Under the pieces are notes generated by a model. That model saw nothing but the letters and a program-made list of their open reading frames with translations, was not told the DNA's origin and ran no database searches. 64,000 nt of DNA from Minisyncoccia bacterium (GTDB lineage: Bacteria; Patescibacteriota; Minisyncoccia; Moranbacterales; GCA-2747515): contig JBGSQF010000013.1 in the NCBI GenBank assembly GCA_041738235.1, positions 321,899 to 385,898 on the forward strand, given 5' to 3'. The position numbers and the translations under genes are program-made. Position 1 is the stretch's first letter; each line of letters begins with the position of its first letter. Shown here in pieces: positions 2,405 through 38,628 of the stretch.

Positions 2405-2479
2405 GCCGCGTTCGTCTAGCCCGGTCAGGACGCCAGGTTCTCATCCTGGAAATCATGGGTTCGAATCCCATACGCGGTA
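2405..2479 (+). tRNA. tRNA-Glu (anticodon CUC)
   Basis: Cloverleaf read by eye: acceptor GCCGCGU/ACGCGGU (one G-U pair), D-arm GUCU/GGAC, anticodon stem CCAGG/CCUGG with loop UUCUCAU, T-arm AUGGG-UUCGAAU-CCCAU, discriminator A. CCA not encoded. Strongly resembles bacterial tRNA-Glu. Confidence 0.7.
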
Positions 2480-2491
2480 CAAATAGCAACC

Positions 2492-2526
2492 AAAAAAGAT
2501 GGTCTTAATGGCCATCTTTTTTTGTT
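2492..2526 (+). terminator. rho-independent terminator downstream of tRNA-Glu
   Basis: 8-bp stem AAAGATGG/CCATCTTT followed by a T-run of 7 or more. Confidence 0.5.
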
Positions 2527-2535
2527 TTTGTGTAG

Positions 2536-2672
2536 CCACGTATGGGATGAGAAGGGTATTTCAAAAAGGCAAACTGCTTTGCGTTTTTGAAAACCCGGGC
2601 TTTGGAGGAGAAAGCAAGGCATGTGCCAAAGGGCACGACTTGCGACGGAGGAAAAGGAATCCCATACGCGGT
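2536..2672 (+). repeat. ~137-nt structured direct repeat, copy 1 (attL-like; carries an 18-nt identical copy of the tRNA-Glu 3' end)
   Basis: About 90% identical to 6319-6456. Ends pair as a 10-bp stem CGTATGGGAT/ATCCCATACG. Internal hairpins GGCATGTGCC and GCAAG...CTTGC. The 3' end AATCCCATACGCGGTACA is identical to tRNA positions 2464-2481. Confidence 0.7.
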
Positions 2673-2678
2673 ACACTT

Positions 2679-2708
2679 AAAAAATGCCTTTTCAAAAGGC
2701 ATTTTTTT
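2679..2708. terminator. bidirectional rho-independent terminator
   Basis: A-run, palindrome ATGCCTT-TTCAA-AAGGCAT, then T7. Could terminate + transcription through repeat copy 1 and/or the minus-strand gene ending at 2888. Confidence 0.5.
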
Positions 2709-2710
2709 CT

Positions 2711-2738
2711 TACCTGTGTATGAGATTCGAACCTGATT
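2711..2738 (-). other. decayed inverted copy of the tRNA-Glu 3' half (att-site remnant)
   Basis: Minus-strand reading AATCAGGTTCGAATCTCATACACAGGTA aligns with tRNA AATCATGGGTTCGAATCCCATACGCGGTA, with a 2-nt deletion and 4 substitutions. Confidence 0.4.
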
Positions 2739-2887
2739 GTCGACACAATAACTCACTACCCACTCACTCACCGTATCTCTCCCCTTCTTTTTTCCAATAA
2801 AAAACCGACTCTTCCTTAAGTCGGCTGGGATGTCTCCCATTCGTGGCCATCTTTGGTCTTTGATTGCTCTCATCTTCTCTACTTTCC

Positions 2888-4537
2888 TCAATAGCAGAGA
2901 TAGTTGTCGTTCCAGGTATGCGGATCGGAAGGCTCCAGCCATTGCACACACCGCTTCCCTCCAATTGGTCCGGCACTGGACCAGGAGAAGTTAAGCGGAC
3001 TGCTCGGTGGCACGCAGAGGTAGTTGTCGTTCCAAGTATGCGGGTCAGCGCTTTCTCTAATCTGCGTACAGCGCATCCCTCCGATCGATCCGGCGCTGTT
3101 CCAACGCATCCCGTAGTCCTGGGTTGCGCAGAAGTAGTTATCCATCCAGGTATGCGGGTCAGCTCCTTCCGAGATCTGCGTGCAGTAGGCCCCGGAAACG
3201 GGTCCGGCATAGGACCAGACAAAAGTGCCGTCGGGACTTGTGGGGAAGTTAGTTACCGTGAACCCCATCGTCTGGGCATTATTGCCTTCGTTAGACTCAT
3301 GCAGGTTTCCCTGGTAGTCGGCGTAACATTGATAGGTGCGAGTTCCTGTGTCTCCCAGTCGGAAGCTATTGCTTATGTACTCCATCTTTTTTGCTCCGAC
3401 TCGCATGTCGCCTGCATCGACACCGTCATCTCCACGGCGGTTTCCTTGATTGATTTGGTAGTCAATGCGGAAACCGTTTGGGGCGTCACGGTTACCCACG
3501 TTTTGCACCTCGCAATACGGGTTGACGTAAGAATCCTTTCGAATGAATCCTCCCTGTCGAATAACCCAACCGTTTACCTTGAGGTACAGGTCGGAAACGA
3601 TGAGGTCGGCCTTCCAAGGCACGACATGGTAGGTGGCGCTTTTGCAGTTGTTGGCTTCGTTTAGCTCCGGAAGCCAGCCTTTGGAGTCCACGCAACAGGT
3701 GTACGTGCGATCTCCGGTGTTGCCCAGCTTCCAGCTGTCCCAGACCACTTCCGTGGCAATTTCACCCACTCTCGATTCTCCGGGGTCAAGGAAGTCCTCG
3801 TCACGCTCACTGCCATCCATACGGTGCGATACCTTGACTTGCAGAGGCGAGTCGATCTCGCCCAGATTGGTCATCTCGCAGTACGGATGCCAATAGTTAT
3901 CCTCCAATAATGTGGCGCCGTTGTAGTAGCGAGCACCCGTTATGGCATCAGAGAAATAGACGTCGGTGACGGTGAGGTCGGGACGCAGGCTTGTGACCTC
4001 GTACCGTTCCACACGGCTCTTGTTGTCACCCTCGTCATACTCTTCGACTTCGTTCCTGAAGTCGATCTCGGTGCGGAAGGCGATTGAGGAGATACCATCG
4101 GGGATGATGTAATCCTTCGTCTCCGTGATCGTCTCGCCTTCGTCGAGCTTGGCGATGGTGATGTAGCCCGTTTGCCATTGGACCCATTCTCCATCGTCGA
4201 TTGACACGAGATACTTGATGTCGATGGTGTCGGCATTGTCCCTCGTCTTCCAATTCCCCGCGTCGCCTCCCACAGCCTTCACCGCGACGCGGTTTCTGGC
4301 TTTCATACCGGGAAGGAATTGATCGTGTCCGGCGTAGAGCTCGTTGCCGTCGACACCGAGGATATCGGTGTCGTTTTTGAGGTTGACGGGGTCGAGGGGT
4401 TGAGGGTCGGTGGGATCAGATGTTGATCCGCCCGCTCCCGAGGTTGTAACAGTGATAGTAACTCCCTCGCAATCGGAAGCGAATGCCTCCGGAAGCAGAA
4501 GGAATAATGCAGTGACGAACAGTATGCCATATCTCAT
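2888..4537 (-). CDS. secreted repeat protein (549 aa) with CARDB-like segments and three C-terminal ~45-aa Cys repeats (C..DPHTW.DNY.C)
   Basis: ATG at 4537 with SD GGAGGAAAT upstream. Signal peptide MRYGILFVTALFLLLPEAFA. Three C-terminal ~130-nt tandem coding repeats. Elevated GC (~55%). The longer ORF start at 4663 overlaps the upstream gene and lacks an RBS. Confidence 0.7.
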   Translation of the reverse strand: MRYGILFVTALFLLLPEAFASDCEGVTITVTTSGAGGSTSDPTDPQPLDPVNLKNDTDILGVDGNELYAGHDQFLPGMKARNRVAVKAVGGDAGNWKTRDNADTIDIKYLVSIDDGEWVQWQTGYITIAKLDEGETITETKDYIIPDGISSIAFRTEIDFRNEVEEYDEGDNKSRVERYEVTSLRPDLTVTDVYFSDAITGARYYNGATLLEDNYWHPYCEMTNLGEIDSPLQVKVSHRMDGSERDEDFLDPGESRVGEIATEVVWDSWKLGNTGDRTYTCCVDSKGWLPELNEANNCKSATYHVVPWKADLIVSDLYLKVNGWVIRQGGFIRKDSYVNPYCEVQNVGNRDAPNGFRIDYQINQGNRRGDDGVDAGDMRVGAKKMEYISNSFRLGDTGTRTYQCYADYQGNLHESNEGNNAQTMGFTVTNFPTSPDGTFVWSYAGPVSGAYCTQISEGADPHTWMDNYFCATQDYGMRWNSAGSIGGMRCTQIRESADPHTWNDNYLCVPPSSPLNFSWSSAGPIGGKRCVQWLEPSDPHTWNDNYLCY

Positions 4538-4580
4538 GGCCGGATTTCCTCCGTTTTTGGGTTGATTGGTTGACATGTGA

Positions 4581-5300
4581 TCACTTGATGCACATGTCAC
4601 CTTTACCGAAGAGTGCATCATAGCTGACATCGTCCGGGTAATGCACCTGGAAGATGTCCGCACACACAGGCCAGGCGTACGTTCTCACGATCTGTCGGTT
4701 GCTGTCGAGTCCGTACCAGGCTTGTGCTTTGATGCACGAGGTGTCGAAGGGGTACCAGGCGTAGTTACCGACCTTGCGGACGGTGAACTGGTTGCCGGGG
4801 ATGGTGGCGGGGTCTTTCTCGTAGATGAACCCACGGAGGGTCCAACTGCCCTTAACATCAGATCCAAGATCCGTATTACGGTGATAAGTGTTACCGCTTC
4901 CTGGGTAGTAAGTGGCGTGATTAATGCCATCCTCAAACCCCTGGCTCTTATACCAATCCATCTCCAAAACATCGAAAGATCCGTCGGTGTATGCCTCCTC
5001 GACGTAAGCGACATGGCCTTCGAACTCCGCGATTGCGCCATCTTTCGGCTCGAACCCGACCATGAAGTCCAGGTTCCGAAGCTTATCGGACCACTGTCCG
5101 CCGTTCCATCCACTTCCGGTTATCGCCGAGGCGATGTCCGGGCGTTTGTATGCGGCCCACCAGGTGCAGTTTCCATGGTCACCACACTCGAAATGGCTCG
5201 TCGTGGACGTATATCCATAACACACCGAGTCACCAGCCAGCGCATTCACTCCGAAGAAAAACACGCAGACGCCAATCAGCCGAGCAAGTAAATTGCTCAT
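4581..5300 (-). CDS. secreted CHAP-domain peptidoglycan hydrolase/amidase
   Basis: Signal peptide. CHAP signature with Cys in GNCTWWAAY and downstream His in GHVAYVE. GC about 55%. Confidence 0.7.
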   Translation of the reverse strand: MSNLLARLIGVCVFFFGVNALAGDSVCYGYTSTTSHFECGDHGNCTWWAAYKRPDIASAITGSGWNGGQWSDKLRNLDFMVGFEPKDGAIAEFEGHVAYVEEAYTDGSFDVLEMDWYKSQGFEDGINHATYYPGSGNTYHRNTDLGSDVKGSWTLRGFIYEKDPATIPGNQFTVRKVGNYAWYPFDTSCIKAQAWYGLDSNRQIVRTYAWPVCADIFQVHYPDDVSYDALFGKGDMCIK

Positions 5301-5413
5301 GATATAAATCCTCTTTCAAGTTGTTAAGGGACGCACATTCTTTGAGAAACGGATATTACCGCTTCAGAGATCGCACGAGAGGTCATGCGATCAAAAAGAG
5401 GTAAAACTGTATC

Positions 5414-6103
5414 TTACTTTTTGAGAATGATACTCTCTGCCATTGTATCAAGAATTTCTTTTCTTATGATATTTTCTTGAGTCATTCTGGCAGTAAGTGT
5501 AAGTGAAATCTTCTTATTGATAATATAGTAAGACTGTTGCATTTGAGAATTTTCATACGTAGCCGAGCAATATGCAATAAAAGGTAATTTTTTGTCATTA
5601 AGAATTTTACATTCAGCAGAGGGATTATTGTCTTTTGCCATGTAGAATATGGAGTCTATCTCATCTTGAGGAGTTCCAGCATCCGAGGTTGCTGTTCCCC
5701 TGTCCGTAATCACGATCTCTGTATTATTGAAAATATCTAATGGAACATTTGATCCTATACCAGAGAAAATTCCAATGTCTGGATGTTTCTCAATATCAAA
5801 ATCTGGGTTATTCGTAATTATTTGCGCATTTTCGTTTGCATCTAGCACTTTCCAATACCACTCTTTCGGGAATTTAATCGTGAAATATTCCGTTTCTTTT
5901 GTTTGCCAATGACTCACATCGAGATCGACATCTGTCACAAAATTTTGATTCTGTTCTTCTTGCTTCCTTTGCTCTTCTTCGGTCTGTTTTTGATTCATTT
6001 CTATCCCCCTCTCCACCTTCCCCGAATACCACAAAACACCCCCGGCAATGAGGACGGCAACAACAAAGAAAATGCTGAGGAATGCGATGCTTTTTTTGGT
6101 CAT
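5414..6103 (-). CDS. membrane-anchored hypothetical protein (N-terminal TM, Gln/Glu-rich linker, beta-rich ectodomain)
   Basis: The ORF track start is a TTG. The in-frame ATG (MTKKSIAFLSIFFVVAVLIAGG) immediately precedes a TM helix. AT-rich (~33% GC), unlike the adjacent island genes. Confidence 0.45.
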   Translation of the reverse strand: MTKKSIAFLSIFFVVAVLIAGGVLWYSGKVERGIEMNQKQTEEEQRKQEEQNQNFVTDVDLDVSHWQTKETEYFTIKFPKEWYWKVLDANENAQIITNNPDFDIEKHPDIGIFSGIGSNVPLDIFNNTEIVITDRGTATSDAGTPQDEIDSIFYMAKDNNPSAECKILNDKKLPFIAYCSATYENSQMQQSYYIINKKISLTLTARMTQENIIRKEILDTMAESIILKK

Positions 6104-6318
6104 AGGGATGATAATAGATTGAATATATTTCTTGTTCAATTTACTATAATTAGCGGGATATGTCAATGTTTTTTAAGCCCGAATTTTTAAAAATACTCCA
6201 AAATCCCCCATCATTTCCCCTACCCTACTCCAATCCAAAGTTCCAAGAACATCACACAGGGGGTACAACTAAGGTAAACAAAAAATACACCCTTCCCAAG
6301 GATGTATTTTTTTTGTAA

Positions 6319-6456
6319 GCGCGTATGGGATGAGAAGGGTATTTCAAAAAGGCAAACTGCTTTGCATTTTTGAAAACCCGGGCTTTGGAGGAGAAAGCGA
6401 GGCATGTGCCAAAGGCACGCCTCGCGACGGAGGAAAAGGAATCCCGTACGCGGTTC
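6319..6456 (+). repeat. ~137-nt structured direct repeat, copy 2 (attR-like; tRNA-Glu 3' end with 2 mismatches)
   Basis: Same architecture as copy 1. Compensatory changes keep the pairing (GCAAG/CTTGC becomes GCGAG/CTCGC; an A.C mismatch at the stem end becomes G-C). Preceded by a terminator-like hairpin ATACACCCTT/AAGGATGTAT plus T8 at about 6285-6314. Confidence 0.7.
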
Positions 6457-6659
6457 AACTCAAGAGCATCTTTTTAAAGTGCATTCTACCTATTTTAGGG
6501 ATTACTCATCTAACTCAATCCCTTCTTTATAATTAGATCCTCATCAACTATCGCTACTGAACAGGAGGTAGAGATAAAAAATCCCCCCCTCTAGCTGATA
6601 AGGGATACACAAAAAAATATGTCACTACCAAAAAAATACAAGTTACCTTGACTTTCCTC

Positions 6660-9600
6660 CTACCACGTCCACGGATTCCACAATACAAAATTCTTAGTAG
6701 GTCGTGTCAAAGCTGGAGGAGTGACGGATTGTTGCGTCTGTTGAGTTTCTTGGGTTGAATTCGTTGGGTTTTGGATTTCTTCTGTGACTTGTCTTTCTGT
6801 ACGTGCTCCTTGCACACTCCCCTCTTCTGCTTGAGTTTGCGTTTCTGTCTGTGATGATACTTGTTGTATCTGACTTACGTAGTTTAGTACAATCGAAGTA
6901 TCTACTCTGTTTCCCGCTTTATCATAGGCTCGAATATTGAGAAGATACGTTCCAAGAGGAAGAGATTCGGGAAGAAGATAAAAAGACTCTTCAACACCTT
7001 GTCTTCTCCAAGACTTTAGAACTTTTCCATTCATATCGACAAGTTGAACCTTATAATAGGAAAGACCCGATCCATTAGGATTGTCAGCTGCAAGAAAATC
7101 TATTCTCTCTTTTCTGGTGAGAGTCTTTTTTTCTGGAAGAGGATTAATGAAAAAGGGATCGGTCTTATCAGTGATAAGAGTAAAGAAGTCAGAGATATCT
7201 GATCTATTCCCAGTGCTATCGATATAGCGTACGGCATATTGATTTTTTCCTTCCTTACTAGAAAGATTGAAGTTCCAAGAGCCCTTCTCATTTATAGAGA
7301 TAGTTTTGAGTTTTTTAGTACCTCCTTTATCTGTTTTGGTATAGAGAGTTATGGTTCCATTTCTTGCTTTTGGATTCTTTCCCTTAAGTCTGGGAGTGGT
7401 ATCGGATCGATAGTTAACATCTTTGAAAGAAATAGATTCCTCATTAGCAGAAAGGTTGCTCTTATTGTCATTTTGGAATTGTTCAAGGTTGGATTCTGAA
7501 GTTTGAAGCGTGGCGGAGTGAATGACAGGAGTGATATTGGGATCTTGTGTAGAAAGAGTTGCTTTCCAAGTAAAATTATTTGCTTTGGTATACTGGGGAA
7601 ATGTTATGGGAGGAGTGAAATCAGCCCAAGTAGATCCGTTGTCTATTGAGTATTGATACTCAATGCTAGTGCCTTCTGGAATCGTTTGATCTGTCTGGAA
7701 AGAGAGGAGTTCATTGGTATTTGGGAAAGAGAGGGTTTGTGAGGTGTAAGTGCCTGAATCAGAGATAAAAAGTCCGTCCTCTTGCCGAGCATATTTGATC
7801 TCCACGCTATCAAGGCTGGGCGTAATGGAATTGTCTTGAGTCGCAAGAACTGCCTTATAGCGAAAGTTGCGGGATAAGTTAACAGGCAGAGCATAAATGC
7901 CAGGATCGGTTCCCAAACTTGTGTATGTTTGACCTTCATCAAAAGAGTAGAACATTTCTATAGAAGTTCCTTCGGGAATAGTGGCTTCCCAAGATAGCTC
8001 AGAATACACCTCTTTTTGGTACGTGTCGGAAATATATTCTAAAGAAAAAAAATAATTCGTATCAAGAACGTTCGTATCTGAATCATTGTCCACATCGGTA
8101 CAGAGATCTGTATTTGATCCTCCAATAGCATAAATCCCACCATTTACCAACTCAGTTGATACTCTATTGAGACCAGTTGGTAATATCCCAATAATATCCC
8201 ATTTATCGTACTCCGGGTCATAGCTATATATATCCTTTGCACGAATAAGCGCATCATCTTTTCCTCCAATATATATAAGCTTACCATTTATAACTACCGT
8301 ATCACCACCACCTCGATATGAAGGCAGAAATGCCAAATCCGTATCCCATGTATCCGTGGCTGGATCATAACTTGCCATAGAGTTGGACACCATACCATCA
8401 CAATCCCGCCTCGCCCCAACGATATACAACTTTCCATTAATAAATTGACCCGAAGCCTGATTCATTTTTACAACAGGGGCAGGTGTTCCGGCCTCCCAAG
8501 TATCTGTTTCTGGATCATAGATCTCCATCTCAGTAGATGAAAGACCAGAACAATCTAAACCACCACTAATGTAGACAGGACCACCTCCCACGACATAGAT
8601 CTTCCCGTTATATACTCCTCCGACAGCTCCTTCCCTCACCCGACTCATAGGTGCGCCCGCTGTCCAAGTATCCGTTTCTGGGTCATATATTTCTACAGAA
8701 GAAAGTTCTGTCTTTGTAGGATAAACTCCGGTAGCACCTCCAAAGACATAGAGTTTGCTATCGTACGCAACAACCATTGGTCTCGTTCTTGTTTGCACCA
8801 TTGGGGATTTAGTCTCCCATGTATCGGTTGCTGTGTCGTAAACCAATAATGTATTATGTCCGCAATTTCCACAACTCATCTTTCCCCCACCCACAACATA
8901 TATTTTTGAACCAATAACAGCACTTCCCGCGCCTTTTGTCTCTTCGGGAAGAGGCGCTTTGTTTTGCCAAGTGTCACTCGATTCAGCATATACGGTTTTA
9001 ACATAAACTCCCTCACTATTATATACGTTATCTATATCAACAACCGAAAGACCGCTTTTATTATCCTCTTCATAGAAAGCCCCTGATTCACTCTTTTTGA
9101 CACTAACATACAAAAGATGATGAGTACCATCCAGAAAAGAATTGTGAACGCTATTATTTACGATTTCTGGAGTTGAAACATTATTATACGTTTTGACCAA
9201 AACATCATCTGCTGGACTCACTGTTCCCCGTGTATCAATAACCGAGAGGGCACCATTATTAATATTGGGATCATTTTTACTACTTACATATAAGAGATCG
9301 TTCGCAGAATCTAAAAAGGCATGCACTACATAATTATTCGCTATCGCTGGGGTGGTAGTTGTTTTATAAGTGATCACCAAAACATCGTCAGTGGCGGTCA
9401 CAGTTCCTTGCGTGTTGATCACGGTAAGACCACCCCCTAAAGTCCCCACATACAAAAGGTTATGCACCGAATCCATAAAGGAGTACGAAACATTGTTACC
9501 CCCGATCGCTGGGGTGGTAGTTGTTTTATAAGTGATCACCAAAACATCGTCAGTGGCGGTCACAGTTCCTTGCGTGTTGATCACGGTAAGACCACCACTT

Positions 9601-10436
9601 GTACTAACGTAAAGGAGATGCGTCGTCTCATCCAAGAAAGCATGCGATACGGAATTATGTCCTATCGCAGGTGTGGTGGTAGTTTTGTATGTTTTTACAA
9701 GTGTGTCATCACCAGCGCTGACCGTTCCTTGCGTGTTGATCACGGTAAGACCTCCACCCAAAGTAGCTATATAGAGAAGATTACGTAAATCATCAAGAAA
9801 AGCATATTTAACAGTGCTGTCATCGATTGCTGGGGTTGTAGTAGTGGTGTAGGTAGTAACCAAAACATCATCAGAGGGAGAAACAGTTCCTTGCGTGTTG
9901 ATCACAGATAATCCCTGACCATCAATGCTTATGTAGAGAAGATCGTTCTTTAAGAATGAGTTATGTATCATATTCCCGGGCAATGCTGGAGTCGATTCTG
10001 TGGAGTAAGTAATAATCAAACTGTCATCAGTTGGATCAACGGTATTACGCGTGTCTATAACTGAAACGCCTAATGAAGTATTAATATACAAAAGACCCTT
10101 AGAGACATCGAGAAATGAACTCCCTGTATTCCTGCTACTAAGCCCCGCAAAAGATCCGCTGGAATATAAATAACTTTTACCAAGAGTTACTTTCCCCTCA
10201 CCATTACGTGAAACTCTTGTAACAAGAGGACTATTATTTACGTAACCTGAATTAAAATCTCCGTCTGTGGTATCTGTATGAATGGTAGTTTTATATTTTA
10301 GACGTAAGTCTCCCGGAATTTGATAAAGATCAATATTTTCATCAGTTGTCCCCATCTCCCAATCCTCCTGAGAAGTAAAAACTTGCCCCTGACTTGAGGC
10401 GTAGACGAACTGCAAAGAAAAAAAGGGGGCCAACAA
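6660..10436 (-). CDS. giant secreted surface protein (1258 aa): YVTN-like beta-propeller repeats, Kelch-repeat propeller, Ig/FN3-like domains, Gln/Thr-rich C-terminus
   Basis: Six or seven ~54-aa repeats LLYV..GGGLTV(I)NTQGTV...TTTTPAI. Kelch-like blades (KIYVVGGG, KLYVFGG, YDPETDTW). The annotated start is TTG. A canonical signal peptide lies upstream in another frame (see findings). Confidence 0.75.
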   Translation of the reverse strand: MLAPFFSLQFVYASSQGQVFTSQEDWEMGTTDENIDLYQIPGDLRLKYKTTIHTDTTDGDFNSGYVNNSPLVTRVSRNGEGKVTLGKSYLYSSGSFAGLSSRNTGSSFLDVSKGLLYINTSLGVSVIDTRNTVDPTDDSLIITYSTESTPALPGNMIHNSFLKNDLLYISIDGQGLSVINTQGTVSPSDDVLVTTYTTTTTPAIDDSTVKYAFLDDLRNLLYIATLGGGLTVINTQGTVSAGDDTLVKTYKTTTTPAIGHNSVSHAFLDETTHLLYVSTSGGLTVINTQGTVTATDDVLVITYKTTTTPAIGGNNVSYSFMDSVHNLLYVGTLGGGLTVINTQGTVTATDDVLVITYKTTTTPAIANNYVVHAFLDSANDLLYVSSKNDPNINNGALSVIDTRGTVSPADDVLVKTYNNVSTPEIVNNSVHNSFLDGTHHLLYVSVKKSESGAFYEEDNKSGLSVVDIDNVYNSEGVYVKTVYAESSDTWQNKAPLPEETKGAGSAVIGSKIYVVGGGKMSCGNCGHNTLLVYDTATDTWETKSPMVQTRTRPMVVAYDSKLYVFGGATGVYPTKTELSSVEIYDPETDTWTAGAPMSRVREGAVGGVYNGKIYVVGGGPVYISGGLDCSGLSSTEMEIYDPETDTWEAGTPAPVVKMNQASGQFINGKLYIVGARRDCDGMVSNSMASYDPATDTWDTDLAFLPSYRGGGDTVVINGKLIYIGGKDDALIRAKDIYSYDPEYDKWDIIGILPTGLNRVSTELVNGGIYAIGGSNTDLCTDVDNDSDTNVLDTNYFFSLEYISDTYQKEVYSELSWEATIPEGTSIEMFYSFDEGQTYTSLGTDPGIYALPVNLSRNFRYKAVLATQDNSITPSLDSVEIKYARQEDGLFISDSGTYTSQTLSFPNTNELLSFQTDQTIPEGTSIEYQYSIDNGSTWADFTPPITFPQYTKANNFTWKATLSTQDPNITPVIHSATLQTSESNLEQFQNDNKSNLSANEESISFKDVNYRSDTTPRLKGKNPKARNGTITLYTKTDKGGTKKLKTISINEKGSWNFNLSSKEGKNQYAVRYIDSTGNRSDISDFFTLITDKTDPFFINPLPEKKTLTRKERIDFLAADNPNGSGLSYYKVQLVDMNGKVLKSWRRQGVEESFYLLPESLPLGTYLLNIRAYDKAGNRVDTSIVLNYVSQIQQVSSQTETQTQAEEGSVQGARTERQVTEEIQNPTNSTQETQQTQQSVTPPALTRPTKNFVLWNPWTW

Positions 10437-10583
10437 ACATAAAAAAAAGGAAAAAACAATATTTTTTTTATTTTTTTCAGCATATCTTTAATAATTATTT
10501 TAACGCAAACCTTCTAAGAAAATGTAATAAAACCACTTTTTCAATAATATCACAAACATCCAAACTAAGATACATTAGATCTG

Positions 10584-11870
10584 CTATGGCATCGTATACG
10601 GTATCTCTTTCCATCGTTTGGTTTGTCGACAGAGAAGTTTTCCCGCTTCCTCCGGATGCGCCATCGCTTGCTCAACGGCCAACTCCATTCGCATGCCCTG
10701 TGATCCCTTTACTAAAACAATGTCGTTGGTGCGAAGATGACTCACAATAAATTTCCCAGCCGATACAGGATCTTCAAAAAGCGCTATGGATTTCTTATGT
10801 ATCCCCTCTCGTTCCAAAGCGTCCCCCAAGAGTTTCATACGCGACCCCACCAATACGATCCCAGCTGGTCGCATCTTTGCTATTGGCTTGGCTAACAACA
10901 TATGCCCTTCCACCTCTTCCGCGCCTAACTCCAACATATCTCCCAGAATGAGTATCTTTCTCCCAAAAGGAATCTGTTCAACTGTCTTTACCGCCGCAAG
11001 CGTTGATGTTGGAGAGGCGTTATACGTATCGTCAAATATCCATGATCCATTCACCCCAGAAATTGGCTGAAGCCTCCCAGGAGAGAGCTGGAAATCTTCC
11101 GATGTTTGAATAACTTCCAAAAGATTTATTTTCAGAGCATCGGCCACCGCAAACGCCGCAAGCACCGCATACACGTGGTGTTTGGCAACAAGATATTTCA
11201 AGCGGATCGGGAGGGTTTTTCCATCGTACTGTATTTTAAACCGCATACCGCACAAACCTTTATCAGTACATACCACAGAATCATTGAACGCGCGTAGCGT
11301 AGCTCGTTTGTGAAAACCATATCCGATGATCCGAGCAGAGGTTCGTTTTCTCATCTTCCATACCCGCACATCATCAGCATTAAGCACCGCGTACCCATCT
11401 GAGCTCAACGCCTCAATAAGCCTTCCCTTTTCTTCGGCGATCGCATCAAGGGATCCAAAGAACTCAAGATGACTCGAGGATATCTCCGTCACAACTGAAA
11501 CATTGGGACGCACAATCGAAAGAAGATATTTCATATCTCCCGGACGATCTACACCCAATTCCAATATCAAGGCATCTGGATATCGAATACGAAAAACCAT
11601 CAACAATAAAAATCGAAATCCGACTCCTATCCACCGAACGAGAGACCTTCCCGGAGCATCACATCCAAGTATTGTCAGAGGGACGCCAATTTCATTATTG
11701 AAGTTCTTTTCACTGCCACGCACAAACACGCGTGGTGAAAGGATGTGCATGATAGCGTCTTTTGTGGTCGTTTTTCCAACTGAACCAGTCACGCCTACAA
11801 CAACCGGTCGGTACTTTAGAAGCACCCCTTTGGCCATATATTTCAATATCCACTGCATCAATCCTTTCAT
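10584..11870 (-). CDS. murF: UDP-N-acetylmuramoyl-tripeptide--D-alanyl-D-alanine ligase (Mur ligase family)
   Basis: P-loop VVGVTGSVGKTTTKD, Mur ligase middle domain, DDTYNASP motif. Follows ftsI in the dcw gene order. Confidence 0.8.
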   Translation of the reverse strand: MKGLMQWILKYMAKGVLLKYRPVVVGVTGSVGKTTTKDAIMHILSPRVFVRGSEKNFNNEIGVPLTILGCDAPGRSLVRWIGVGFRFLLLMVFRIRYPDALILELGVDRPGDMKYLLSIVRPNVSVVTEISSSHLEFFGSLDAIAEEKGRLIEALSSDGYAVLNADDVRVWKMRKRTSARIIGYGFHKRATLRAFNDSVVCTDKGLCGMRFKIQYDGKTLPIRLKYLVAKHHVYAVLAAFAVADALKINLLEVIQTSEDFQLSPGRLQPISGVNGSWIFDDTYNASPTSTLAAVKTVEQIPFGRKILILGDMLELGAEEVEGHMLLAKPIAKMRPAGIVLVGSRMKLLGDALEREGIHKKSIALFEDPVSAGKFIVSHLRTNDIVLVKGSQGMRMELAVEQAMAHPEEAGKLLCRQTKRWKEIPYTMP

Positions 11871-11877
11871 AAAGCAC

Positions 11878-13653
11878 CTACTGTTTAGTCACTAATTGAT
11901 CTTGTTCCGTAGGAGGGATCTTTGCATGTTCGAGAAGAAATGTCATCATCTTCCCAAAAACCGGACCAGCAACCGTTTCCGCCCAGATCACCTTTTTTGG
12001 ATTATCGATCTTTACCACCACAACAAACTTTGGATCACCGATCGGCGCATACCCCGCAAATGATCCGATAGTTATACCCTCAGCATACCCTTTTTCATCT
12101 TTCTTGGCCACCTGGGCAGTTCCTGTTTTTCCTCCCACACGGTATCCGGGGATCTTAGCCTTCTTTCCATGTCCGTTTTCTACTACACTGTAGAGCATCT
12201 CCCCGATCTGTTTCGATGTACTTTCTTGTATGACCCGACGGTCCTCTTCAGGTTGCACGACCTCGACACTCCCATCAGGATGAATGATCCGATCCACAAA
12301 TTGCGGTTTCATGAGTCGCCCGCCATTGGCCAATGCAGAATACGCACGCGCCAATTGCAACGGAGTAAGTGAAATTCCCTGACCAAATGAGGCAGTAAAA
12401 AAGTTGATCTCTCGATTCAGATAATCCAGGTTCTTTATATTGCCTAAAGCCTCTCCAATAAAACCACTTCCCGTACTTTCTCCAAAACCAAAACGCCGTA
12501 CATATTCGGCAAACATCTTGTTTCCCAAAAGCTTCTCTACATACACGGTACCCGTATTCAGAGACTCATCAAGTACTCGTGTCATAGTTTGCAATCCATA
12601 CGCCTTTTCGTCGGAGTTTTTGATTGTATAACTGCCGGAATGCACTGCTCCTGTATCCACATACGTACTTTCAGGAGTGATCTTACCTTGATCGATCCCC
12701 ATGGCTATCGTAAAGGGTTTGAAGACTGATCCACACTCATATGACGATTGAATAGGTGTATTGATAAAAAGGGAGAGATCTTCTACCTTGGAGTATTCGT
12801 TCGGATCAAAATCGGGATAGGATGCAAGGGCAAGCACCTTGCCTGTGTTTGGATCCATCACCACCATACTGCCACTATCAGCCTCATTCTCGTCTATGGC
12901 TTCTTTGAGGATCCTTTCCGCCTCATACTGGATCGTGTGGTGGATCGATAATACAACATCTGAACCATCAGAGGGCGCTTCGAAAGAACCTGCTTCATGC
13001 AACATTCGTCTTCCGCCAGCATCACGTTTCCCAGATATCACTCCAGCCTCCCCGCCCAGAACACCTTCAAATGATGCTTCTATTCCATATCGACCAAGTC
13101 TTTTTTGCCCATCTGATCCGACGAATCCGATCATATGGGATGCCAGTGTTCCTCCAGGGTAATATCGATACTCCTCTGGGTGCACAAAGACACCTTTGAC
13201 ACCAGAATTTTGTATAGCATTTTTCTGATCCTCAGAAACCCGATGCTCGATCACCTCAAATGGATCTGAGCGATCTACAAGCTTTTGTTCGATCTCTGAA
13301 CGCTCCTTTCCCAATACGCTACTGAGCAATGAAACAACTGCATTCGGATCTGAAACCATGTTTGGAGCAATATAAACCATCGGATATTCGCGATTTACCG
13401 CAGCCGGGTAGAGTCCACTCTCAGTGTCATCCTCAAGATATATTTCTCCCCTCCTTCCTTGTAAAAGCTGAGAGATGTTATGCTGCTTGTCCGCCAAAAT
13501 TTGATACGTATCAGAAGCGCTTACCTGCAAATTATACAAACGAAGACTGACTATGATCGAGATCAGTAAAACTCCCAACGACAAAAACATCACGCGAACA
13601 TTTCGCGGGATCTCTCGAATACGCTCCGCCTTTCGCGCTTTCAGTTTCTTCAT
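11878..13653 (-). CDS. ftsI: penicillin-binding protein 2/3 transpeptidase (FtsI-like)
   Basis: N-terminal TM. SXXK (SVFKPF), SXN (NSDE region) and KTG (GGKTGTAQV) motifs. Position in the dcw cluster. Confidence 0.85.
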   Translation of the reverse strand: MKKLKARKAERIREIPRNVRVMFLSLGVLLISIIVSLRLYNLQVSASDTYQILADKQHNISQLLQGRRGEIYLEDDTESGLYPAAVNREYPMVYIAPNMVSDPNAVVSLLSSVLGKERSEIEQKLVDRSDPFEVIEHRVSEDQKNAIQNSGVKGVFVHPEEYRYYPGGTLASHMIGFVGSDGQKRLGRYGIEASFEGVLGGEAGVISGKRDAGGRRMLHEAGSFEAPSDGSDVVLSIHHTIQYEAERILKEAIDENEADSGSMVVMDPNTGKVLALASYPDFDPNEYSKVEDLSLFINTPIQSSYECGSVFKPFTIAMGIDQGKITPESTYVDTGAVHSGSYTIKNSDEKAYGLQTMTRVLDESLNTGTVYVEKLLGNKMFAEYVRRFGFGESTGSGFIGEALGNIKNLDYLNREINFFTASFGQGISLTPLQLARAYSALANGGRLMKPQFVDRIIHPDGSVEVVQPEEDRRVIQESTSKQIGEMLYSVVENGHGKKAKIPGYRVGGKTGTAQVAKKDEKGYAEGITIGSFAGYAPIGDPKFVVVVKIDNPKKVIWAETVAGPVFGKMMTFLLEHAKIPPTEQDQLVTKQ

Positions 13654-18253: not shown

Positions 18254-20263
18254 CTACACATCGAGGTTTTTCACCGATTTGGCATGCATTTGTATGAATC
18301 GTCTCCGTGGTTCCACATCCTTTCCCATCAGAACATCGAACATCTTTTCCGCCGCCTCCGCATCCTCGATGCATACTTTGTACATTAATCGATTCTCCGG
18401 ATCCATCGTCGTCTCCCAAAGCAGTTCCGGATTCATCTCTCCTAATCCCTTATACCGCTGTATCACTATTGAACCTTTTTGCTCCGTTTTTGCCAAAACA
18501 TTCCCATCGCCCACCTCTTCTTGTGGGGACTCTTCTTGAGATACTTCCTCTACCACAACACCCATCCTTTTGAGAAGCGCATCTTTTTCTTGATCCGTAT
18601 ACACATATGTTGTTTTTTTGCCTCTTTTTATTCCATACAAGGGTGGTTGTGCAATATAGATATATCCCCCACGAACCAGATCCTCAAAGTATCGGTAAAA
18701 GAATGTGAGCAACAATGTTCTAATGTGTGATCCATCGACGTCAGCGTCTGCCATAATGATGATCTTGTGATAACGCAACTTCTCAATATTAAAACTATCT
18801 CCAATGCCGGCTCCCAGAGCGATAATGATCGGTTTGAGCGTATCAGACTTCACCACTTTATCGAGTGTTGTTTTTTCCACATTCACCATCTTTCCTCGAA
18901 GTGGAAGTATCGCTTGATACATACGATCTCGCCCTTGTTTAGCCGACCCACCAGCCGAGTCTCCCTCTACAATATAGAGTTCCGCGTTTTCCGCCTTTCT
19001 CGTCGTACAATCAGCAAGTTTGCCGGGAAGCGTCATCCCTTCCAATACCCCCTTGCGAAGCACAGCGTCTTTTGCGGCTCGCGCGGCAATACGAGCTCGA
19101 ACAGTGAGTAGGCACTTCTCCAAAATAAGTTTTGCATCACTGGGATTTGCTTCCAGATACTCCGCAAGTTCCTTGGATACAACCCCTGCCACAGCCGTTC
19201 TTGCTTCGCTACTGCCCAGCTTTGCCTTTGTCTGACCTTCAAACTGAGGATCGGGAAGTTTAACGCTGACCACCGCCGTCAACCCCTCCGCCAGATCATC
19301 AGAAGTGAACGTTCCTTCTTTCTCTTTCAAGAAGTTGTGCTTCTTTGCATAGTCATTCAGAACACGCGTGAGCGCTGATTTGAATCCCGTAATATGCATA
19401 CCTCCTTCCGGGGTATGAATATTATTCGCAAATGCATACAAATGCTCCTTAAAACTATCCGTATACTGCAACGCTACTTCCACCATTACCTCCCCAGACT
19501 GTTTCTGTATGAATATAGGACGCTTATTTTTCACATCCAAAGAACGGTTGAGATAATCAACAAACGAAATAATCCCGGCGTCAAAATAGAAGGCATACTG
19601 TATCGGAGGTTCCACCTCTCCTGCACGTAGATCCTCCAAGGTGATCCGAACCCCCTTCGTCAAATAAGCTTGCCATCTTGTATAATCCAATATTTTTTTC
19701 CAATTGAACTCGATCTCCGGAAATATCTGAGGATCAGGACGAAAAGATACCTTTGTCCCTGTTTCCTTTGATGTACCGATCGCACGGACATCTTTCTTTG
19801 GTTTTCCTCTTTCATACTCTTGCATCCAAACCTTTCCATCTCTTTGAACCTCAACTTTCGTCCACTCAGAAAGAGCGTTTACCACAGAAACTCCCACGCC
19901 GTGCAACCCCCCCGACATCTTATATCCACCACCACCAAATTTTCCTCCAGCATGGAGGATCGTCAACACGGTTTCCAGTGTCGACTTTTTTGTTTGAGGA
20001 TGCTTCTCTACCGGGATACCGCGACCATTGTCTGCTATTTCGACCGTATTATTAGGAAGCAAGCGAATACGAATAGAATCACAATATCCTGCCATTGCCT
20101 CATCGATCGAGTTATTGACCACCTCCCAGATCAAATGATGAAGCCCTTCAAGCGATGTTCCCCCGATGTACATACCGGGACGCTTCCTCACCGGGTCCAA
20201 TCCTTCTAGGACCTGTATCGATTTGGCTCCATAAGAAGATTTTTCATTTTTCTCTTGTATCAT
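18254..20263 (-). CDS. gyrB: DNA gyrase subunit B
   Basis: GHKL ATPase N-terminus (LEGLDPVRKRPGMYIGGT...HLIWEVVNNSIDEA), TOPRIM domain (EGDSAGG), C-terminal GyrB tail. Confidence 0.9.
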   Translation of the reverse strand: MIQEKNEKSSYGAKSIQVLEGLDPVRKRPGMYIGGTSLEGLHHLIWEVVNNSIDEAMAGYCDSIRIRLLPNNTVEIADNGRGIPVEKHPQTKKSTLETVLTILHAGGKFGGGGYKMSGGLHGVGVSVVNALSEWTKVEVQRDGKVWMQEYERGKPKKDVRAIGTSKETGTKVSFRPDPQIFPEIEFNWKKILDYTRWQAYLTKGVRITLEDLRAGEVEPPIQYAFYFDAGIISFVDYLNRSLDVKNKRPIFIQKQSGEVMVEVALQYTDSFKEHLYAFANNIHTPEGGMHITGFKSALTRVLNDYAKKHNFLKEKEGTFTSDDLAEGLTAVVSVKLPDPQFEGQTKAKLGSSEARTAVAGVVSKELAEYLEANPSDAKLILEKCLLTVRARIAARAAKDAVLRKGVLEGMTLPGKLADCTTRKAENAELYIVEGDSAGGSAKQGRDRMYQAILPLRGKMVNVEKTTLDKVVKSDTLKPIIIALGAGIGDSFNIEKLRYHKIIIMADADVDGSHIRTLLLTFFYRYFEDLVRGGYIYIAQPPLYGIKRGKKTTYVYTDQEKDALLKRMGVVVEEVSQEESPQEEVGDGNVLAKTEQKGSIVIQRYKGLGEMNPELLWETTMDPENRLMYKVCIEDAEAAEKMFDVLMGKDVEPRRRFIQMHAKSVKNLDV

Positions 20264-20282
20264 ACGATTTCATTTAACCAAC

Positions 20283-20693
20283 TTATTCTTTCCTCCTCTC
20301 TTTTCCCGCAGAGAGCACAATAAACATTCCTTCCAAAAAAATAAACAACAATCCCAATAAGATCAAGACCCACCACACAAGAACCCGAAAACTCTGCAAT
20401 ATCAACATAACTACTACGAGTCCGCCCAACAATATTCCTTCACGAAAACCTGCTGATATCTTTTCTGATGGCCCCTCCGATCCCATAGACCGCATACGAA
20501 GCCAAAGCAACGCCAAAACACAGATCCCCGAAACGAGAAAGAAGACACTTCCATAGAAAAGGAGCTGCCCAACCAAACCCGATATAGTAGGATCTACCCA
20601 AAATAAAACGGTCGAAAAAACGATAAAAGAAAATATAACCTCCAAAACTATCACCAAAAAAAGCAGTCGGAAGCCCATATGCTCAAATTTCAA
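20283..20693 (-). CDS. polytopic small membrane protein (hypothetical; possible T4SS-associated)
   Basis: 136 aa, about four TM helices, immediately downstream of the T4SS ATPase gene. Confidence 0.45.
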   Translation of the reverse strand: MKFEHMGFRLLFLVIVLEVIFSFIVFSTVLFWVDPTISGLVGQLLFYGSVFFLVSGICVLALLWLRMRSMGSEGPSEKISAGFREGILLGGLVVVMLILQSFRVLVWWVLILLGLLFIFLEGMFIVLSAGKERRKE

Positions 20694-20828
20694 AAAAAAC
20701 TATAAGGGTATCATTTAGCACCCCTTTCTCTTCTAATATACTCCTATTTCACCCCCCTGGCAATATGCCGAAAGGACATCCTCAGATGTCCCCGTCCTCA
20801 AAAACGTTCCGTATAAAGCATTTTTCTA

Positions 20829-33556: not shown

Positions 33557-33679
33557 ATACGGTTAATTTTCGTTCCTTAAAATGGCGTGAAACTTCTCGC
33601 GAGCATGGTGTGGAGGAACCCTCCTCCACGACTCACTCGCGGGAAACCCCCGCAATCCACATACAGAAAAGGAGCAGAA

Positions 33680-34060
33680 ATGAAGCCCGAGCGAGTTCTA
33701 GCTTTCGGAATATCAGTCATGGTGGCATTGGCCATTTGGCTCTGGGTCGAAGGGCGGGAGGAGGTGCGGGTGCGGGAGATCACTCACGCTCTCCAGCACC
33801 TCAACCGCGGAGACGCGGTCATCTTCCGCGACGGACGTCACGGGGAGGTTGTCCAAGGAAGGGAGTCTCCGCCAGTGGGGATCAGCACCCTGGACGGCGA
33901 GATGACCCTCCCGATCGTCATCATGGAGATCTATGGTCCAGGTGACGGGAAATGGGAGGGGCGGATGACGTACGCCGTCCACCGCGTCGGGGCGATCGCC
34001 CCAGACATCGAGAGGGTCGAGCTGAAGGGAGTTCCGGACCCCCGACCCACCACCCCATAG
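33680..34060 (+). CDS. GC-rich (~63%) small membrane-anchored hypothetical protein (126 aa)
   Basis: ATG with SD AAAGGAG. N-terminal TM (VLAFGISVMVALAIWLW). The ORF track start further upstream lies in the leader. Confidence 0.55.
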   Translation: MKPERVLAFGISVMVALAIWLWVEGREEVRVREITHALQHLNRGDAVIFRDGRHGEVVQGRESPPVGISTLDGEMTLPIVIMEIYGPGDGKWEGRMTYAVHRVGAIAPDIERVELKGVPDPRPTTP

Positions 34061-38061: not shown

Positions 38062-38178
38062 AGGATTTCTCGTTTATTATTTAGTATATAACTTCCTCCT
38101 CTAGGATACACTATTTTTGAACATCTCACAATACAATTACAATTGCATGCTGAGTCAAAAGATGCTACCATTTTATAT

Positions 38179-38628
38179 ATGAAAACGATCGCCTTCAACA
38201 AACGAGCTTCTTATGATTACTTCCTCCACTCACATACCGAGGCAGGAGTGGTTTTAAGTGGACAAGAAGTACGATCTATAAAAACTGGGCATATCAGCCT
38301 CAAGGGAAGCTTTGTGACCGTAAAAGGATCGGAGCTCTACCTTACGAACGCCAATATCCCTCCCTATATTCACGCCGGGGAGATCAAGAACTATGACCCC
38401 ACTCGTCCACGAAAACTCCTTCTCAAAAAGAACGAGATCGCCTCTTTTATAGGGAAAAGCAAGGCTGAAGGCATGACCCTTATCCCCACTCGAGTATATG
38501 TCAAAAAAGGGAAAGTAAAGGTGGAGATTGCCACCGCTACAGGAAAGAAAAAGTACGACAAACGCGATACCATTGCCAAGCGAGAATCCAAGAGAAGGAT
38601 CGAACGCACCCTTCGTACCAATTCTTGA
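38179..38628 (+). CDS. smpB: SsrA-binding protein SmpB
   Basis: MKTIAFNKRASYDY...GKVKVEIATATGKKKYDKRD...RTLR, a classic SmpB. ATG at 38179 chosen. Confidence 0.85.
   Translation: MKTIAFNKRASYDYFLHSHTEAGVVLSGQEVRSIKTGHISLKGSFVTVKGSELYLTNANIPPYIHAGEIKNYDPTRPRKLLLKKNEIASFIGKSKAEGMTLIPTRVYVKKGKVKVEIATATGKKKYDKRDTIAKRESKRRIERTLRTNS

Follow-up and report, generated by a model that had tools for sequence, protein, structure and literature searches.

A repeated structured element carrying the tRNA-Glu 3' end at a variable locus of a Minisyncoccia bacterium

The tRNA-Glu gene, its neighbours and copies of its 3' end

The window analysed here, a 64-kb stretch of DNA from an uncultivated, Moranbacteria-like Minisyncoccia bacterium of the CPR, contains a tRNA-Glu gene that is followed by a structured element, three cargo genes on the opposite strand, a second copy of the element and a gene for a surface protein (Table 1). 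The open reading frame of the CARDB-repeat protein reaches 4663, with the signal-peptide start at 4537. The start of the third cargo gene is uncertain: a protein begun at the ATG at 6103 has an N-terminal membrane helix, and a start at 6166 gives 250 aa, matching the gene called in the related contig L132. The CHAP hydrolase has a 95% identical homologue on L132 (P0121). None of the cargo proteins gave a match in exact-protein look-ups. Against a gene mean of 45.1% GC (sd 4.0), the CARDB and CHAP genes are rich in GC (z ~ +2.4) and the membrane-protein gene is poor (z -2.1), which bears out an earlier sequence-only reading that the cargo is compositionally heterogeneous.

Table 1. Features of the tRNA-Glu locus, in window coordinates
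Feature	Position	Strand	Evidence or remark
tRNA-Glu (anticodon CTC)	2405-2480	+	ARAGORN; Rfam tRNA 61.4 bits; pattern search
Terminator-like hairpin, A and T runs either side (bidirectional)	2488-2526	.	inverted repeat; terminator scan, + strand, 2492-2522
Structured element, copy 1 (predicted)	2526-2682	+	fold -74.2 kcal/mol, z -6.9; covariance model R1 171.6 bits
Copy 1, P1 5' strand	2536-2548	+	inverted tRNA-end copy
Copy 1, P2 hairpin	2554-2596	+	
Copy 1, P3 hairpin	2615-2642	+	
Copy 1, P1 3' strand	2659-2671	+	within exact tRNA-end copy 2657-2675 (att2)
Perfect 14-bp hairpin, A and T runs, after copy 1	2679-2707	.	inverted repeat, 100% complementary
5' arm of second, truncated element, type E (GTATGAGATTCGAAC...TGTCGAC)	2711-2747	+	inverted repeat; alignment
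Cargo gene 1, secreted CARDB-repeat protein	2888-4537	-	Pfam CARDB, E 4.6e-17; 54.9% GC
Cargo gene 2, CHAP-domain hydrolase	4581-5300	-	Pfam CHAP; 54.4% GC
Cargo gene 3, membrane-anchored protein, no Pfam family	5414-6166	-	36.8% GC
Cargo right end: conserved flank (CCAATCCAAAGTTCCAAGAAC), then decayed tRNA-end copy (ATCACACAGGGGGTAC, 6251-6266; att3*)	6223-6268	+	local alignment to L126
Hairpin before copy 2	6275-6317	.	inverted repeat; terminator scan, - strand; blastn
Structured element, copy 2 (predicted)	6309-6464	+	fold z -4.25; R1 169.2 bits
Copy 2, P1 5' strand	6319-6331	+	
Copy 2, P2	6337-6379	+	
Copy 2, P3	6398-6424	+	
Copy 2, P1 3' strand	6441-6453	+	within tRNA-end copy 6439-6457, 2 mismatches (att4)
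Kelch/Ig-like surface protein gene	6660-10436	-	Pfam

The end of the tRNA gene (~19 nt) together with one trailer base (2463-2481; att1) is the reference copy of a repeated block. A pattern search of the window with the 19-mer GAATCCCATACGCGGTACA matched this position and 2657-2675 exactly, and 6439-6457 with two mismatches. About 0.01 matches are expected by chance, and three were reached by no shuffle, so the three + strand copies reported from the sequence alone are real. Three more had been overlooked. Two are inverted (2536-2553 and 6320-6336), each opening one copy of the repeat, and the third is the decayed direct copy at 6251-6266, recognisable only through its homology to an intact copy in the relative L126. 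The decayed inverted tRNA half described earlier was correctly seen as an inverted match (2718-2733 is 94% complementary to 2458-2473), and its identity is the 5' arm of a type E element; the arm at 2711-2747 can be aligned with L132 and with the same arm in the second element of L129. A fifth att copy was considered at 10553-10572 and rejected, as only 13 of 20 positions match and the L132 alignment gives no support.

The identity block starts at G57 in the T loop and extends through the end of tRNA-Glu. The T loop through the tRNA end is the typical extent of att sites. Among the fetched genes, a non-tRNA copy lies no more than 600 nt away in 6 of 23 A-variant and 14 of 93 G-variant tRNA-Glu genes; in the examples printed, such copies follow a purine-rich tract, not the T-loop UUC. 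Partial tRNA-Glu copies that resume at G57 turn up repeatedly in CPR and, in a second phylum, in Bacteroidota-like contigs, which suggests that there may be a general mechanism of insertion at that position. Four of the Bacteroidota-like contigs (L042, L091, L097, L100) have free-standing GIY-YIG endonuclease cassettes beside tRNA-Glu. Like the units of the window, these lie between tRNA-Glu and a partial copy resuming at G57 after an inserted hairpin. Unlike the units of the window, which have no nuclease, they encode one that could drive their own spread.

The repeated structured element

The direct repeats align between 2525-2632 and 6308-6415 with 94% identity and between 2629-2703 and 6411-6485 with 79% identity and a 1-nt indel. 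A repeat of 137 nt had been reported here; it exists, but its real extent is longer, about 150 nt. Each unit is predicted to fold as a three-way junction in which the closing helix, P1, pairs the tRNA-end copy with the inverted copy. In copy 1, P1 reproduces the acceptor and T-stem stack of tRNA-Glu (GCCACGU-AUGGG / CCCAU-ACGCGGU-ACA). Its 3' strand holds the last ~19 nt of the tRNA, from G57 in the T loop to A73-C, and the P2 and P3 hairpins, which are maintained by compensatory changes, stand in place of the T loop. Copies 1 and 2 themselves differ by compensatory changes in P3.

In four type A sequences, two of them near-identical, 94% of the cells are paired, compared with 24-53% when the partners are slid. 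In the same four, 12 of the 42 pairs have changed on both sides, a score reached by 0 of 500 shuffles. Independent folding gave P1, P2 and P3 for 10 of 12 family members. In 8 of 9 sequences the + strand folds no worse than the other strand, and pair changes on one side only are G-U on the + strand. Watson-Crick covariation would fit a folded single-stranded DNA site too.

The copies are accompanied by hairpins. The one between tRNA-Glu and copy 1 has flanks that resemble the spacers of L126 and L129, and the one before copy 2 has a homologue in L129, located between tRNA-Glu and the element (L129 970-1094 with window 6275-6391, 79% by blastn). No sigma-70-like promoter was predicted on the + strand upstream of either copy.

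Does the element belong to a class that has already been described? No Rfam family covers it at gathering thresholds or among matches with E up to 5 in the window and up to 1 in L085, L046 and L129. The sole overlapping match, to RsaE, is below threshold (27 bits against a gathering score of 79). A tRNA or tRNA pseudogene was rejected, as ARAGORN and the Rfam tRNA model call only 2405-2480 and the element keeps the acceptor and T-stem strands alone. Coding potential was likewise rejected: the 1-nt indel between the copies interrupts a small + strand ORF, whose part in P3 is replaced in relatives. A six-frame chimeric protein query of the element had no match in 5.8 billion proteins, its interior had none among called ORFs, and no hammerhead or other small-ribozyme core was found in it by eye. 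Interior 20-mers had 0 matches in IMG/VR and three in the GTDB representatives, all of them due to chance and inside unrelated coding regions. Even with filters off the 64-kb window holds two copies only. This number, and the lack of interior matches in GTDB representatives and IMG/VR, speak against a MITE or dispersed repeat, despite the inverted termini. Literature searches returned no description of such an element. From these comparisons it appears to be a previously uncatalogued tRNA-linked structured element.

Related elements and variable segments

The close relatives L126 and L129, in which the RNase-H-like proteins are 96% and 90% identical to that of the window, have the element directly 3' of tRNA-Glu on the same strand, with inner hairpins that covary with those of the window. 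Identity between L126 and the window is 72% in the element, 59% in the spacer and 50% in the 3' flank; in a neighbouring gene third-codon identity is only 61%. The two copies of the window are 94% alike and only ~75% like the orthologues. In L127, L128, L130 and L131, tRNA-Glu is absent after the RNase-H-like gene. The populations of L126, L129 and L132 are represented by the Logan runs ERR14790927, SRR14761453 and SRR11567540, and the Mur gene of the window is present in SRR28170473 and SRR28170474.

With the covariance models R1 and R2, matches on the same strand immediately 3' of tRNA-Glu appeared in L122, L058, L085, L105 and L047 as well. L113 has a tandem pair of elements, and L046 has a copy with no tRNA on the 3.9 kb fetched. 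Other sequence types 3' of tRNA-Glu in distant CPR contigs share the skeleton UGGGAUUCGAAGGG ... CCCRGGCU ... GAGGAGGAAUCCCAUACGCGGUAC. With a Mur ligase upstream in L085 and L122 and a polyprenyl synthetase downstream in L047, L085 and L122, related element types occupy conserved core synteny in some CPR contigs. Several types have a possible GAA/CGAA duplication at the T-loop junction.

The right edge of the island had been placed at 6439-6456. That segment belongs to the second element, and the cargo instead ends at the decayed copy att3*. The alignment of 6223-6268 with L126 12540-12581, where the copy is intact, scores 56 against a shuffle maximum of 50. A block of 87% identity with L132 stops at 6244, and L132 carries the same decayed copy. 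In L126, cargo with a ClpP-like gene lies between the element and the intact third tRNA-end copy, whose flank is common to window 6223-6266. Left-flank homology between the cargo segments of the window and L126 did not rise above shuffles. The second element heads a further variable segment of ~4.3 kb (about 6270-10570), with the Kelch gene, that blastn against the window shows to be missing from L132. L129 has neither cargo. Segments bounded by tRNA-end copies differ between close relatives. The L132 junction lies ~25 nt past att3*, inside the hairpin, and looks like a deletion rather than an excision. Among L126, L129 and L132, no precise empty site was recovered.

At the nucleotide level L132 and the window are 90-94% identical in the membrane, CHAP and CARDB cargo and 73% in the adjacent Mur and PBP genes. 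This indicates an exchange of the cargo that is recent by comparison with the core genes beside it. A complete Moranbacteria genome has this gene triad at two places, neither of them within 10 kb of a tRNA or att copy, so the cargo is not tied to the tRNA-Glu site.

A Pfam scan of ~50 ORFs of the window, nearly all those of at least 150 aa, found no recombinase, in agreement with the absence of an integrase noted earlier; an integron cassette array was rejected, there being no integrase of any kind in the window. The ORFs tested next to 16 related tRNA-Glu loci with partial copies gave no integrase either. On the viral contig L134, a large serine recombinase gene has a sister variant of the block at its 3' end. 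The A-variant block itself is in no viral contig.

A proposed recombination hot spot at tRNA-Glu

We propose, with about an even chance of being right, that tRNA-Glu anchors a modular hot spot of recombination at this locus and that the repeated unit, rather than being an integration scar, is a conserved structured element. Downstream of the tRNA gene, each element would provide a second, spare att-type identity block, so DNA could be inserted, lost or swapped there without damage to the tRNA. A unit of hairpin, element copy 1 and cargo would have entered at the tRNA end, pushing the resident old tRNA end (6251-6266), hairpin and element copy 2 downstream. Recombination would depend on an enzyme acting in trans, whether an integrase from a phage or island or, following DNA uptake, RecA. 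Transcription of the element probably follows the tRNA strand and gives a tRNA-like 'top-half' RNA, which tRNA-processing enzymes could handle.

The sequence-only reading had instead seen site-specific integration into tRNA-Glu, possibly more than once. On this model there were one or two integrase-mediated integrations, and the repeats would be att-proximal arms of a decaying, integrase-less (CIME-like) island. Several observations favour it. The block spans the T loop through the tRNA end, decay is greater in distal than in proximal copies, tRNA-end copies delimit the segments that vary among relatives, and the cargo is atypical in GC and closer between lineages than core genes are. Tandem units occur elsewhere (L031, L106, L113), and the sister block sits beside a serine recombinase in a virus. 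What does not fit is a simple duplication of att arms, since the repeats are copies of an element that is kept by tRNA-Glu in relatives from which this island is missing, with 12 compensatory pairs and better conservation than its flanks. Related types lie in conserved Mur / tRNA-Glu / polyprenyl-synthetase synteny, and no tested ORF at these loci is an integrase. A decaying scar would moreover have lost the two hairpins and the exact 19-mer, synonymous sites being near saturation. The evidence partly supports an exchangeable island at a hot spot of recombination on tRNA-Glu, and we consider an origin of the repeats as island arms unlikely.

Two processes might simply be superimposed: a small RNA gene of ordinary vertical descent that segmental duplication or unequal crossing-over has copied once, and surface genes that vary through homologous recombination and indels, with the tRNA-end copies uninvolved. 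The covariation and synteny of the element are in keeping with this, as are copies 94% alike and ~75% like their orthologues, a L132 junction off any att copy and a gene triad found elsewhere without att copies. Surface-protein loci of CPR are also generally hypervariable. However, in the window, L132 and L126 alike, a tRNA-end copy marks where the high-identity cargo block stops on the right, and what follows that copy, a hairpin and an element, is orthologous to the unit next to the tRNA in L129, as insertion at the tRNA end predicts. Partial copies that begin exactly at G57 in two phyla also speak against uninvolved copies, and we doubt this explanation. Still less probable is an element acting as DNA, either a miniature inverted-repeat element or invertible segment with inverted tRNA-end termini, or a folded single-strand site like attC. 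The terminal inverted repeats of 12-20 bp around ~105 nt, the possible duplication at the T-loop junction of several types, the tandem arrays and Watson-Crick pairs compatible with folded DNA would suit it. Yet there are two copies only in 64 kb, and copies lie directly 3' of tRNA-Glu or in an array following one, L046 excepted. The interior has no match in GTDB representatives, IMG/VR or called ORFs, no transposase, invertase or intI is nearby, and G-U pairs and fold energies favour one strand.

How does a tRNA-Glu hot spot of this kind compare with known systems? Islands and prophages in tRNA genes reportedly include a T-loop sublocation class, described by Williams in 2002, in which the tRNA 3' end is duplicated. 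Like the locus, tRNA-integrated islands and prophages have direct repeats of the tRNA from T loop to 3' end, variable cargo of atypical composition between the repeats, and tandem copies whose decay grows with distance from the tRNA. Unlike them, the locus and the ORFs tested at related loci have no integrase or excisionase, and the repeat lies in a conserved, covarying structured element that persists without an island. CIMEs are integrase-less elements that accrete in tandem beside ICEs, as with Streptococcus thermophilus ICESt1/CIME. They resemble the locus as recombinase-less, att-flanked segments in tandem at one tRNA-type site, presumably mobilised in trans. The units of the locus differ in their size of 0.15-4 kb, in an att copy that is part of a folded element, and in having no helper element identified. 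In integrons, attC sites, like the element, have an interior conserved in structure rather than sequence and delimit arrayed promoter-less cassettes. The locus, in contrast, has no intI, attI or Pc; the terminal 19-mer of its element is strictly conserved and tRNA-derived, and its cargo includes multi-gene segments that have promoters and terminators of their own.

At the RNA level, tRNA-like minihelix RNAs are handled by tRNA-processing enzymes, as in the phage P1/P7 C4 RNA precursor, mascRNA and the tRNA-like domain of tmRNA. The element likewise has a helix of 12-14 bp equivalent to the acceptor and T-stem stack, with a 3' strand and discriminator identical to those of the real tRNA. It differs in lacking D and anticodon arms and in having two hairpins in place of the T loop. 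It also goes unrecognised by ARAGORN and the Rfam tRNA and tmRNA models. A further and quite improbable thought is that the element family is a portable docking platform. Such a 'top-half' mimic of tRNA-Glu would offer its 3' strand as a spare attB, and its RNA, which would contain the target and its complement, might take part in recombination or in recognition of the tRNA end. If this were true, CPR would have a tRNA-anchored cassette array with a recombinase in trans, comparable to an integron and built from a tRNA fragment.

The genomes of CPR/Patescibacteria are tiny, with few recognisable mobile elements and very variable surface-protein genes. A conserved element that duplicates the tRNA-Glu attachment block would offer a concrete and testable route for cassette exchange in these bacteria, here with cargo that has moved between lineages whose core genes are 27% different at the nucleotide level. 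A phylum in which few non-coding RNAs are known would also gain an uncatalogued tRNA-linked RNA motif.

The repeat and the tRNA-Glu 3' end

The window comes from the chromosome of a CPR bacterium close to Candidatus Moranbacteria. Its genes include dcw genes, gyrB, smpB with tmRNA, infC, miaA, gatB, and type-IV-secretion-like genes, and homologues of its RNase-H-like protein carry the names Moranbacteria or Moraniibacteriota. The sequence GAATCCCATACGCGGTACA, the last 19 nt of tRNA-Glu plus trailer, occurs twice more, the number of matches expected by chance being about 0.01. The threefold occurrence of the tRNA-Glu 3' end claimed in the sequence-only reading is thus borne out. Both additional copies are the ends of a longer direct repeat, and inverted tRNA-end copies, missed by that reading, open each repeat copy. 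With an inverted copy at its start and a direct one at its end, the unit therefore closes on itself.

Coordinates of features in the window
Feature	Position (strand)	Remark
RNase-H-like protein	880-1458	
tRNA-Glu(CTC)	2405-2480	sole tRNA in the window
Element, copies 1 and 2	2526-2682 (+); 6309-6464 (+)	
Direct repeat, first part	2525-2632; 6308-6415	94%
Direct repeat, remainder	to 2703; to 6485	79%, 1-nt indel
Inverted tRNA-end copies	2536-2553; 6320-6336	
Direct tRNA-end copies	2657-2675; 6439-6457	exact; two mismatches
5' arm, truncated type-E unit	2711-2747	
Inverted tRNA-end fragment	2718-2733	
CARDB gene	2888-4537 (-)	
Repeats, CARDB gene 3' end	2893-3185	three of ~115 nt
CHAP hydrolase gene	4581-5300 (-)	
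Membrane-anchored protein gene	5414-6166 (-)	
Flank CCAATCAAAAGTTCCAAGAAC	6223-6250	
Decayed tRNA-end copy	6251-6266	with its flank, aligned to L126: score 56, shuffle maximum 50
Kelch/Ig-like gene	6660-10436 (-)	
Tandem repeats in Kelch/Ig-like gene	9281-9943	159-162 nt each
Mur ligase gene	10584-11870	
157-aa ORF region	33587-34060	61.8% GC in a 44.7% GC window (z 4.2); no Pfam family, no Rfam match
smpB, immediately followed by tmRNA	38143-39183	tmRNA of 434 nt, tag ANFITKAKDAIARAFSTSFATALA

In copy 1 the closing helix P1 (GCCACGU-AUGGG / CCCAU-ACGCGGU-ACA) is the tRNA-Glu acceptor stem stacked on the T stem, and the place of the T loop is taken by about 105 nt making two hairpins, P2 and P3. 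Compared with shuffled sequences, copy 1 folds at -74.2 kcal/mol (z -6.9) and copy 2 at -66.7 kcal/mol (z -4.25). The few differences between them are largely compensatory, such as GCAAG/CTTGC versus GCGAG/CTCGC. A small ORF across the unit was considered as a coding sequence; it is interrupted by the 1-nt indel.

A conserved element in relatives

No Rfam family matches the unit, and no description of it was found in the literature searched. Its interior was not found in IMG/VR or in the called ORFs of a large protein collection, and GTDB representative genomes gave three chance matches only. The RNase-H-like protein led to contigs of close relatives. Two of these, L126 (96% amino acid identity) and L129 (90%), have tRNA-Glu, then a hairpin, then a homologue of the unit. 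Between the window and L126 the unit is 72% identical at the nucleotide level, versus 59% for the spacer before it, 50% for the 100 nt after it, and 61% for third codon positions in the gene next to it, which means that the unit is constrained.

In the alignment of these four sequences (both window copies, L126, and L129), 94% of cells are paired in the P1/P2/P3 structure versus 24–53% with slid partners, and 12 pairs have changed on both sides, with none of 500 shuffles as good. P3 has a wholly different sequence in L126 and L129, with the hairpin retained. Conserved single-stranded motifs are GAAGGG, the P2 loop AAACUGCUU, CCCRGGCUYUGGAGG, and GGAAGAGGAAUCCC.

Within the window, a covariance model built on the same four sequences found no more than the two copies, and R2, a family-wide model, added no further copies there with filters off. 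Weaker but significant matches were obtained in seven metagenome contigs that had been fetched by the tRNA-end pattern. In six (L122, L058, L085, L105, L047, and L113, the last with two copies in tandem) the element is directly 3' of the tRNA-Glu gene on the same strand; L046 is the exception. The common skeleton is UGGGAUUCGAAGGG, a hairpin, CCCRGGCU, a helix CUYYG/CGGRG, and GAGGAGGAAUCCC(A/G)UACGCGGUAC, with variable interiors, and 10 of 12 family members fold independently into the same three-way junction. Another sequence type, type E, is found in L129 after the first element and also at the end of contig L132. The inverted fragment noticed earlier is real, but its surroundings, taken for a decayed inverted tRNA half, are the 5' arm of a truncated type-E unit.

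In L085 and L122 the element has a Mur ligase gene and tRNA-Glu on one side and a polyprenyl synthetase gene on the other, with a lectin-like gene intervening in L122; in L047 it is flanked by tRNA-Glu and polyprenyl synthetase. No recombinase turned up among the ORFs tested near it in these three. Such a position speaks for a stable part of the chromosome, not a recent scar.

In five distant relatives (L026, L035, L074, L085, and L122) tRNA-Glu is directly downstream of the Mur ligase gene in the same direction, whereas in the window these genes are 8 kb apart and convergent. This suggests an inversion or rearrangement in the window's lineage.

Exchange downstream of tRNA-Glu

The heterogeneous composition of the cargo genes was confirmed: where genes average 45.1 ± 4.0% GC, CARDB has 54.9% and CHAP 54.4%, but the membrane gene has 36.8%. 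Likewise, as the sequence-only reading had stated, the window has no integrase; Pfam gave no recombinase matches among about 50 ORFs, a set that covers nearly every ORF of 150 aa or longer.

Contig L132 was reached through a CHAP protein 95% identical. Read in window orientation, its order is the terminal part of a type-E element with an intact copy of the tRNA end, the same hairpin and inverted arm, the genes for CARDB, CHAP, and the membrane protein, the decayed copy as in the window, about 190 nt, and then Mur and PBP. The cargo is 90–94% identical to that of the window at the nucleotide level, versus 73% for Mur and PBP, and therefore was exchanged between lineages long after their divergence. 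Conservation within the cargo is lowest in the C-terminal part of CARDB. The block of high identity stops at 6244, a little short of the decayed copy. L132 is without copy 2 and the Kelch gene (window ~6270-10570); its junction, about 25 nt past the decayed copy, is not that of a clean excision. In L126 the order is element, exact tRNA-end copy, terminator, ClpP-like gene, and a third intact copy (ATCCCATACGCGGTAC), preceded by the same flank, CCAATCAAAAGTTCCAAGAAC, as the decayed copy. The complete Moranbacteria genome CP065011.1 has the full membrane (239-aa)/CHAP/CARDB triad once and a second 239-aa/CHAP pair 10 kb away, running off the locus end (9157-12060 and 19512-20723 of locus L133), with an AbiEii/AAA region between. 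No tRNA or tRNA-end copy is within 10 kb of the triad; thus these genes are native to the group and not bound to the tRNA-Glu site.

Proposed insertion at tRNA-Glu and the nature of the element

Of the tRNA-Glu genes whose fetched loci reach far enough downstream, 6 of 23 with the A-variant of the end block and 14 of 93 with the G-variant are followed within 600 nt by a partial copy of the 3' end that does not belong to a tRNA. A purine-rich tract, not the UUC of the T loop, precedes the copy in the examples printed, so the copy begins at about G57. Tandem units of 93 and 110 nt, each ending in the tRNA-Glu 3' end, follow tRNA-Glu in three loci (L031 4841-5117, L106 1571-1847, and L113 3928-4151). 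In Bacteroidota-like contigs (L042, L048, L075, L091, L097, and L100) tRNA-Glu is followed by a unit of about 330 nt (e.g. L097 3552-3902) containing a terminator, an ORF for a GIY-YIG nuclease of 88 aa (Pfam E 3e-13), and 'GGGTTC-hairpin-GAATCCCGTACGCGGTACA'. The unit has the look of a selfish cassette that entered the T loop at C56/G57. A different partial copy, starting in the anticodon loop (motif GGCGGGCAGGTCATCCTGG...), is found in L009, L033, L035, L037, and L053, and in L122 on the downstream side of the element. Its place in L009 and L035 is between tRNA-Glu and the polyprenyl synthetase gene. The ORFs tested near these copies yielded no integrase.

In the IMG/VR viral contig L134, a gene for a large serine recombinase (782-2368) overlaps with its 3' end a block (2288-2306) identical to the G-variant from T loop to 3' end, with no tRNA there. 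This block can thus be used by a phage for attachment, and is likely a phage attP aimed at tRNA-Glu. The A-variant is in no viral contig, and the ORFs tested beside 16 related loci include no recombinase.

Are the long repeats att duplications, as the sequence-only reading proposed, or an element in their own right? The latter holds, and the element looks functional. The proposed integration island is partly supported: there is an exchangeable island at a tRNA-Glu hot spot, with no integrase in cis and with different limits, its right end being the decayed copy rather than the second long repeat. The tRNA-end copies would provide sites of attachment or homology, used by a recombinase supplied in trans or, following DNA uptake, by RecA. 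The hairpin, copy 1, and the cargo may have been inserted at the tRNA end, ahead of a resident old end, hairpin, and copy 2. The hairpin before copy 2 is homologous to that between tRNA-Glu and the element in L129, as expected if copy 2 once adjoined the tRNA and was then displaced by such an insertion.

As to its nature, the element could be transcribed, as a tRNA-like 'top half', or could be a site in the DNA that folds. In 8 of 9 cases the + strand matches or exceeds the - strand in folding, and where only one side of a pair has changed, the + strand has a G-U pair; this weakly favours an RNA made in the tRNA's direction. RNA is favoured because of these two features, the position of the element, and the lack of a terminator between tRNA and element in L085 and L047. 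Best supported is a reading in which the repeat, as a conserved structured element, is tied to tRNA-Glu and is followed downstream by a modular region of exchangeable DNA, with tRNA-end copies at the boundaries of its segments.
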